From Chloroflexota bacterium (GTDB lineage Bacteria > Chloroflexota > Anaerolineae > UBA2200 > JACIWT01), in the NCBI GenBank assembly GCA_014360825.1, contig JACIWT010000002.1:14782-78781 (forward strand): a stretch of DNA of 64,000 nt, read 5' to 3'. Position 1 is the first letter of the stretch. Every line of letters starts with the position of its first letter. The notes under the pieces are model-generated. The model saw nothing but the letters and a program-made list of their open reading frames with translations, searched no databases and was not told the origin of the DNA. A program made the position numbers and the translations under genes. Positions 5,067 through 6,288 of the stretch are shown in pieces.

Positions 5067-5498
5067 TTGAAGCATGGAGGACAGGAGGTCATGACTTCTA
5101 AGACGGAGATTCGGACGATCAGCAAAATCGTAGATTCAATTGGGTTCCAGGGTCACAGCCTGATCTCCATTAATGATCTTTCCAACGATCAAATCTACGG
5201 CCTCTTTGAGTTGGGTCGGCTCCTGGAGCCTTGGAACCGTTCTGGCATTCATTTGTTGACTGGCAACGTGATGGCCACCCTTTTCTTTCAGCCCAGCACG
5301 CGGACGAGAATGAGTTTTGAGACGGCGATGCACCGGCTGGGCGGCGCCGTCATCACCGAGACCACGCCTCTTATCTCCTCATCAATCGCCAAGGAAGAGA
5401 GCCTGGCAGATATGTTGAAAGTGGTCTCCAAGTATGCTAACGTGATCGTGATCCGGCACCCGAATGCCGACGAGGCAATGTGTGAGTCACGTAAATAA
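5067..5498 (+). pseudogene. aspartate carbamoyltransferase N-terminal (carbamoyl-phosphate-binding) domain fragment, divergent partial duplicate of pyrB
   Basis: Matches PyrB residues ~1-113 (STRTRMSFETAMHRLGG ... VIVIRHP) then ends with an unrelated 11-aa tail. Overlaps the next pyrB by 35 nt in another frame. Confidence 0.45.
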
Positions 5499-6288
5499 CG
5501 CGACCCTTTTCTACGAACCCTCCACTCGAACCAGACTCTCATTTGAAAGCGCTATGCTGCGACTCGGTGGTCAGGTGCTTTCTGTAGCCGAAGCCACGGC
5601 CTCAAGTAGTGCTGCCAAAGGAGAAACCCTCTACGACACGGGCAAGATGATCGAGAGCTATGCCGATGTTGCGGTTATTCGGCATCCCCGGAAGGGAAGC
5701 GCCGCAGAGCTGGCCGAAGGCGCCAGTATCCCGGTCATCAACGCTGGCGATGGCGCAGGCCAGCACCCTACGCAGGCCCTGCTGGACCTCTACACGATAC
5801 GGAAAGAGAAGGGCAGGCTCGAGGGTTTGACAGTGGCGCTTGCCGGTGACCTAAAGTATGGTCGCACCGTCCATTCCCTGGCGCCATTACTGGCATACTT
5901 CGGTACGCGTCTCTTCTTTGTTGCGCCGCCAGAACTGGCGATGCCAGCGGAGATCACCGCCGGGTTGCGTGAGCGAGGTGTCGAAGTCGTGGAGACGAGT
6001 GATTTGAGTGATGCAGTGCGTGTGAGTGACGTACTGTATATGACGCGCCTGCAGAAGGAACGTTTTACTGATCTTGCTCAGTATGAGGCACTGAAGGGTT
6101 CATATATCGTGAATAGAGAGGTGATCGACCGTGCCAAGCCTGGGTTGACCGTGATGCACCCTCTGCCGCGGGTAGATGAGATCGCGCCAGAAGTGGATAG
6201 TTATCCCGGTGCTGCATATTTCCGTCAGGCCGCCAACGGTGTGCCGGTCCGCATGGCCTTGTTGGCTTTGGTTACTGGTCAAGCATGA
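5464..6288 (+). CDS. pyrB: aspartate carbamoyltransferase catalytic chain; lacks the first ~40 residues as called
   Basis: STRTR, QHPTQ and HPLPRVDEI ATCase signatures. N-terminus begins ~20 aa before STRTR, whereas E. coli PyrB has ~50. Confidence 0.8.

Follow-up and report, generated by a model that had tools for sequence, protein, structure and literature searches.

Taken together, our analysis indicates that the apparent double pyrB at positions 5067-6288 of the window (the whole 64,000-nucleotide stretch of DNA examined here) is most likely a real rearrangement scar, and dead. In the reading that we favor and consider probable, a complex illegitimate rearrangement fused two paralogous genes for carbamoyltransferases, and its scar has become fixed. 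Three pieces meet there. Piece A (5091-5477, plus strand) corresponds to codons 1-129 of a gene of the pseudo-ATCase subgroup 2 type, with 83% identity to the nearest related locus, L004, and 71% to the full-length relative P0204. Piece B (5467-5508, minus strand) is an inverted scrap corresponding to codons ~283-296 of that same gene, and piece C (5500-6288, plus strand) corresponds to codons 49-310 and the stop of a genuine, PyrB-type ATCase, 84% identical to residues 49-309 of the protein P0002. A chimeric pseudogene junction is ordinary in kind; the breakpoint of this one is unusually legible.

Two open reading frames span the junction. ORF1 runs from TTG 5067 or ATG 5091 to 5498, with its stop, TAA, at 5496-5498. 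ATG 5091 is the more plausible start: it is preceded by the Shine-Dalgarno-like GGAGGACAGGAGG and it is where the deposited gene of 135 aa begins, as in two Logan contigs. The frame of ORF2, which is +1 with respect to that of ORF1, is open from 5452 to 6288 and contains an ATG at 5464. At NCBI the two products, from a Chloroflexi MAG, are named "hypothetical protein" (ORF1, MBC7262989.1) and "aspartate carbamoyltransferase" (ORF2, MBC7262990.1). Against Pfam, ORF1 covers positions 2-113 of the 148 in the OTCace_N profile and ORF2 covers positions 41-147 together with the entire OTCace domain. The segment from STRTR to IRHP is present in both, at 56% identity over 68 aa (BLASTP E=1e-19). An earlier note on this DNA had described just such a pair, overlapping by 35 nt in different frames and sharing a segment ~55% identical, and Pfam and BLASTP confirm that description. 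It had also argued against a recent tandem duplication and a simple frameshift, rightly so; two different genes and an inverted scrap meet at the junction. The scrap, on the minus strand at 5467-5508, and the breakage of the neighboring amidohydrolase gene go beyond what was seen then. ORF1 is homologous to its own family as far as codon 129 (5477), and ORF2 to full-length ATCases from 5500 onward, which corresponds to residue 49 of 310.

Judged by its motifs and its relatives, ORF1 is the 5' 129 codons of a catabolic-cluster paralog belonging to pseudo-ATCase subgroup 2, and is not pyrB; genes of this clade occur in catabolic clusters of the ureide/purine type. This subgroup was defined by Barba, Dutoit, Legrain and Labedan (Barba et al. 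2013) through the motifs H[ST]LP and GX[SC] (PMC4016543, Table 1), with Nocardioides sp. JS614 as its type example and one Nocardioides genome to its name in 2013; the same table gives S[TR]RT, HP[ST]Q, RXQ and HP[LG]P for genuine ATCases. We make the assignment because the motifs of the ORF1 family match that table. HTLP and G[CS]S are found in 20 of 20 full-length relatives and HPTQ in 19 of the 20, and in an alignment with the ATCase of P. abyssi, the closest solved structure to a full-length protein of the family, GCS occupies the RxQ site and HTLP the HPLP site. In the window, STRT is retained in ORF1, the HPTQ and GX[SC] regions have been deleted, and HTLP lies on the minus strand at 5473-5484, within piece B. 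Full-length relatives of 333-336 aa, with 67-71% identity to ORF1, were recovered by HMMER against cluster representatives. One full-length relative of piece A is P0204, 336 aa long, in which homology to ORF1 ends at residue 129-131 and which scores 207 bits on TIGR00670, under the ATCase cut-off of 236.95. To ORF2-type ATCases, ORF1 is only 35-44% identical. The earlier note had taken ORF1 for PyrB residues ~1-113; the STRTR and IRHP motifs, both carried by piece A, and the extent of the OTCace_N match stand, and the attribution to PyrB gives way to pseudo-ATCase subgroup 2.

Membership of subgroup 1, the ureidoglycine carbamoyltransferases (UGTCases), was ruled out for the ORF1 family, which has HTLP and GCS instead of the subgroup 1 motifs HPLA and AIA, AIS or SIA (PMC4016543). 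The likeness to UGTCase (Rxyl_2847) is one of setting: that enzyme of ureide catabolism, too, is an ATCase-like paralog whose gene has carbamate kinase and an allantoinase-like gene for neighbors, and L004 also has a gene for (S)-ureidoglycine aminohydrolase nearby. We also rejected a stand-alone family consisting of the OTCace_N domain only, because unbiased searches found full-length proteins of 328-336 aa; the short OTCace_N-only proteins came from a word-indexed search with ORF1, and the short matches listed there are contig-end fragments or frameshifted tails. In contig_50992 (L003 and L032, 1.12 Mb) many genes are fragmented, with an ABC ATPase in pieces of 76, 183, 71 and 112 aa and a pseudo-ATCase in pieces of 229 and 63 aa, and breaks of this kind help account for the short-protein matches.

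The little-studied pseudo-ATCase subgroup 2 proves to be widespread. A genome scan located relatives of ORF1 at 69 genome loci, with up to 83% identity, in Anaerolineae, Armatimonadota, Actinomycetota, Thermodesulfobacteriota, Bathyarchaeia and others, and full-length relatives carry STRT, HPTQ, HTLP and either GCS or GSS. Neighborhoods were counted at the 61 loci with at least 59% identity to ORF1. There the genes lie in clusters with carbamate kinase (36 loci), usually together with a cyclic amidohydrolase (45), and a second, distantly related carbamoyltransferase is nearby at 27; none of the 61 has a DHO_dh gene nearby, and none has an ORF2-type ATCase within 10 kb of the ORF1-type gene. 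L004 also has an allantoinase-like gene nearby, and its second carbamoyltransferase scores best as AOTCase/OTCase-like and is not clearly YgeW. Homologs of the GntR regulator of the window occur at three pseudo-ATCase loci (L018, L026 and L059; 41-46% identity) and at L048 (32%). The MAG JACKCC01 contains both paralogs, on separate contigs (L010 and L074). Unlike these loci, the window holds codons 1-129 and an inverted scrap of 14 codons, a remnant and not a gene.

By its profile score and motifs, piece C is a genuine ATCase of the PyrB type, codons 49-310. ORF2 (5500-6285) scores 347.5 bits on TIGR00670 against the equivalog cut-off of 236.95, despite its truncation, keeps all of STRT, HPTQ, RLQ(KER) and HPLP, and has no internal stop. 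Its closest proteins are full-length Chloroflexi ATCases of 310-311 aa, with at most 84% identity. Among the PyrB relatives, 80-84% identical, one lies in a pyrB-PRTase-pyrK-pyrD context (L074); in L073 the ORF2 relative has an amidohydrolase on one side and an IclR regulator on the other, with FAD and Fe-S subunits of a xanthine-dehydrogenase-like enzyme next to it. Unlike PyrB, ORF2 lacks residues 1-48 of the full-length enzyme, and so is not a complete chain, has no clear start, and has carbamate kinase and a GntR regulator as its neighbors instead of a plain pyr operon. In the AlphaFold model of P0002 (pLDDT 92.5), the part absent from ORF2 holds helix 17-35 and the first portion of strand 47-52, the strand that runs into the STRTR loop. 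Gene callers place the start of ORF2 variously at 5464, 5482 and 5554 (ATG, GTG and ATG), and a weak GAGG lies 6 nt upstream of GTG 5482, from which a truncated protein could be made.

When full-length family proteins were compared with the window by tblastn, the minus strand at 5467-5508 matched pseudo-ATCase residues ~283-297. Over the whole window the E-values were 0.002 with P0204 and 0.01 with P0206, and the same spot was matched by 18 of the 18 family proteins tested (E from 4e-4 to 0.14), always ending at 5467. Piece B carries HTLP, the motif specific to the clade. The 22 nt found in piece B and in neither flank (5478-5499) encode VIYVTHT, which matches L005 exactly and agrees with the family consensus, and comparison of the minus-strand reading of 5455-5520 with L005 supports it further. 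Read from the hybrid sequence alone, the parental sequences being gone, so that the lengths actually used may differ, the stretch shared by pieces A and B measures up to 11 nt (5467-5477) and that shared by pieces B and C at least 6 nt (5500-5505 or beyond). In the first overlap, CCGACGAGGCA gives ADEA when read forwards, as L005 does, and LPRR when read backwards; in the second, the forward reading of GCGACC is the AT of ATLFYEP and the backward reading is GR. The frame of piece A runs into the scrap and stops inside piece B, the tail of ORF1, MCESRK-stop, being the antisense reading of the scrap, and pieces A and C are out of register. The alternative that at 5478-5499 the pseudo-ATCase continues forwards in decayed form ("CEC PVIN", after small deletions) was dropped, the inverted match being much stronger, and a similarity on the antisense strand at 54283-54441, weak with E about 0.1-0.9, was treated as chance. 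A search for a DNA hairpin at the junction gave nothing unusual (z = -0.47), and the 64-kb window contains no reciprocal junction and no other carbamoyltransferase remnant.

What leads us to infer template switching or end-joining is that the short inverted insert comes from the same gene and that neighboring pieces overlap briefly at either join. A templated inverted insert with short overlaps is the footprint of FoSTeS/MMBIR and of quasipalindrome strand switching. A full pseudo-ATCase gene would once have stood at this site. While the DNA was being replicated or a break repaired, the strand under synthesis would have left it at codon ~129, re-primed on the opposite strand ~500 nt downstream, near codon ~296, at a short inverted match, and copied ~30-40 nt backwards, to about codon 283; a second jump, again at a short match, would then have landed at codon 49 in an ATCase gene, either downstream or at another place, with the loss of all sequence between. 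Like the products of template switching and microhomology-mediated joining (FoSTeS/MMBIR; short-range template switches, PMC7954356), the locus combines a pair of breakpoints in cis with brief overlaps at each join and with a short inverted insert for which nearby sequence of the same gene was the template; unlike there, the process is read here from one final sequence of an uncultured bacterium. The ancestral arrangement was not recovered, the closest amidohydrolase orthologs being on 3-kb contigs and the close carbamate kinase homologs having unrelated neighbors, so that there may have been a single event or several in succession, with the ATCase gene nearby or distant. We expect no working enzyme from either frame: ORF1 is without the whole second-substrate domain, and ORF2 is without the N-terminal segment and first helix and starts inside the strand that leads to the STRTR loop.

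The genes around the junction form a decaying operon. A GntR/FCD-family regulator (4313-5062, plus strand; Pfam GntR and FCD) is the first gene of a putative transcription unit that plausibly extends through carbamate kinase, bracketed by a predicted promoter (4131-4159, TTGACA/17/TATCCT) and by a strong hairpin resembling a terminator (9975-10003) after the carbamate kinase gene. Downstream of ORF2, a 1-nt deletion at about 6755-6756 splits a gene for a cyclic amidohydrolase (DHOase/allantoinase/hydantoinase-like; 6383-7779, plus strand) into halves in different frames, 6383-6796 and 6820-7779; at the lesion the window encodes VDF, followed by GT and then CTA TTT GGT GGG, where L077 has VDFGLYGG in one frame. 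Both halves are in one frame in the orthologs L076 (76% identity) and L077 (71%), in L077 as a single ORF. The deletion is common to all three assemblies of the locus (the window and the two Logan contigs), and would fit an operon no longer under selection; other broken genes in the window count toward the same reading of decay. The remaining genes of the unit are a DHO_dh-family dehydrogenase (7857-8819, plus strand; Pfam DHO_dh), apparently intact and below the curated PyrD cut-offs (TIGR01037, 242 against 270; NF005574, 237.5 against 269), and an intact carbamate kinase (8934-9911, plus strand; 368 bits on TIGR00746 arcC against a cut-off of 358). In L076 and L077 the amidohydrolase is followed directly by carbamate kinase (81% identical), with no dehydrogenase between.

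That the junction is a metagenome assembly chimera of two genes or organisms is very unlikely and carries next to no weight with us, even though the window comes from a MAG and conserved motifs are common to both genes. An exact look-up with the 135-aa ORF1 found it in Logan contigs from two other sequencing runs, L001 (SRR28822788) and L002 (SRR11866725), built with a different assembler; look-ups with the longest versions of the ORFs gave no match. Both contigs keep the gene order of the window, the split amidohydrolase included, and the junction DNA is identical in all three, with 18 SNPs in 6960 nt between the window and L001 and 2 in 5636 nt between the window and L002 over the full lengths. 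It is because the identical junction recurs in two independent assemblies that have SNPs elsewhere that the artefact once suggested by the earlier note can be set aside with such confidence. One base differs among the three sequences across 4900-7000, and there are no SNPs within 5091-6288, a count that is uninformative on decay either way. The overlaps of 6-11 nt also look too short to have misled a k-mer assembler, and an inverted insert of 40 nt would not be expected from one. A functional arrangement strikes us as improbable and deserving of little weight. Under it, ORF1 would act as a stand-alone carbamoyl-phosphate-binding fragment, or a shortened ORF2 would be made from GTG 5482 or ATG 5464, or both, or a programmed +1 frameshift would fuse the two. 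The strong ribosome-binding site of ORF1, the full set of catalytic motifs and the absence of internal stops in ORF2, the weak GAGG ahead of GTG 5482 and the NCBI annotation of ORF2 as aspartate carbamoyltransferase speak for function. However, the layout is private to one lineage, one species-level population: neither protein search found it in a second lineage, each ORF forming one 100%-identity cluster, and at none of the 61 related loci are these two paralogs joined, so that the possibility of relatives with the same two-ORF organization, also contemplated in the earlier note, finds no example there. The disagreement of the gene callers over three different starts counts against function as well, as do the loss from the product of helix 17-35 and of half the strand that precedes STRTR, the double occurrence of the STRTR-IRHP segment that a fusion would entail, the dissolution of the seeming family of short OTCace_N-only proteins into fragments and broken genes, and the frameshift in the next gene of the operon. 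A truncated PyrB from an internal start, another proposal of the earlier note, could be made and is unsupported.

A stepwise history or horizontal replacement is unlikely but merits some weight. Here a foreign or paralogous ATCase fragment would have recombined into a resident pseudo-ATCase gene, and the scrap would derive from a separate small inversion or deletion, earlier or later. The clusters of the two halves never occur together in the 61 related loci, the downstream amidohydrolase and carbamate kinase are 38-45% identical to their counterparts in typical pseudo-ATCase clusters against 70-83% for ORF1, and the cluster lies between two groups of tRNA genes, all of which would suit such a replacement. 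It calls, however, for more events than a single episode of template switching or end-joining; no repeats and no mobile-element genes or features were found near the junction, the GC and GC3 of both halves are inside the window's range, so that neither is marked as foreign, and nothing recognizable marks the downstream end of an inserted block. The displacement by a xenologous copy that the earlier note had offered survives in part: a 5' remnant does stand ahead of the larger, 3' part of another gene, but the remnant is not of a native pyrB and the inverted scrap of ~40 nt does not belong to a clean replacement. We accordingly continue to favor the rearrangement that fused the two paralogs.

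As natural breakpoints go, this one is clean: three pieces can be told apart in an uncultured Chloroflexi bacterium, and the inverted templated scrap with its short overlaps is a type of trace mostly reported from model organisms and human genomes. For annotation, both ORFs and the neighboring amidohydrolase are best treated as broken when the MAG is scored for pyrimidine biosynthesis or ureide catabolism.

At 7857-9911, a dehydrogenase below the PyrD cut-offs lies beside a bona fide carbamate kinase, the pair being possibly GntR-regulated. Dehydrogenase, carbamate kinase, ATCase and amidohydrolase resemble the pyrimidine pathway reversed for ATP, and this setting may be that of the uncharacterized "DHase X1" in PMC4016543. 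We put forward as a long shot that the block of ATCase, amidohydrolase, DHO_dh dehydrogenase and carbamate kinase is the remnant of an ATP-yielding catabolic route, with ORF2 perhaps translated from GTG 5482. If so, the route would run from orotate to dihydroorotate, carbamoyl-aspartate, and aspartate plus carbamoyl phosphate, and from there to ATP, and would be in the course of being lost here; it would also be the "catabolic ATCase" that, according to Shi et al. 2015, remains to be proven (PMC4581275).

Other features of the window merit mention. The block from LexA to carbamate kinase is flanked by tRNA genes, at 3057-3207 (Pro and Gly, plus strand) and at 10065-10421 (Leu, Cys, Gly and Phe, minus strand). 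Sites of tRNA genes are often hot spots of recombination or integration; no integrase was seen near this tRNA-bracketed block. Farther along, positions 17726-35419 hold a large cluster for hydrogen and formate metabolism, with genes for HypE-like, HypD, HypF, MobA and FdhD proteins, a formate/nitrite transporter, an FdhA-like protein, the large subunit of a NiFe hydrogenase, a 20-kDa subunit, a NuoG-like protein and a 1039-aa NuoF/GltD-like fusion. Within this cluster, the FdhA-like molybdopterin oxidoreductase gene at 25060-27828 (minus strand) is one frame of 923 codons with three internal stops, and is probably another pseudogene. The TGA at 26725-26727 stands in a classic selenocysteine context (NNVDHCARL*HSSTV) and probably encodes selenocysteine. 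The TAG at 27448-27450 and the TAA at 26125-26127 each replace a glutamine (C..G.C.LQ and NNVQGACDMG) that is conserved in the enzyme family; a paralog at 30406-32187 shows the first of the two. The split of this gene is repeated in the SRR11866725 and SRR11866715 assemblies.
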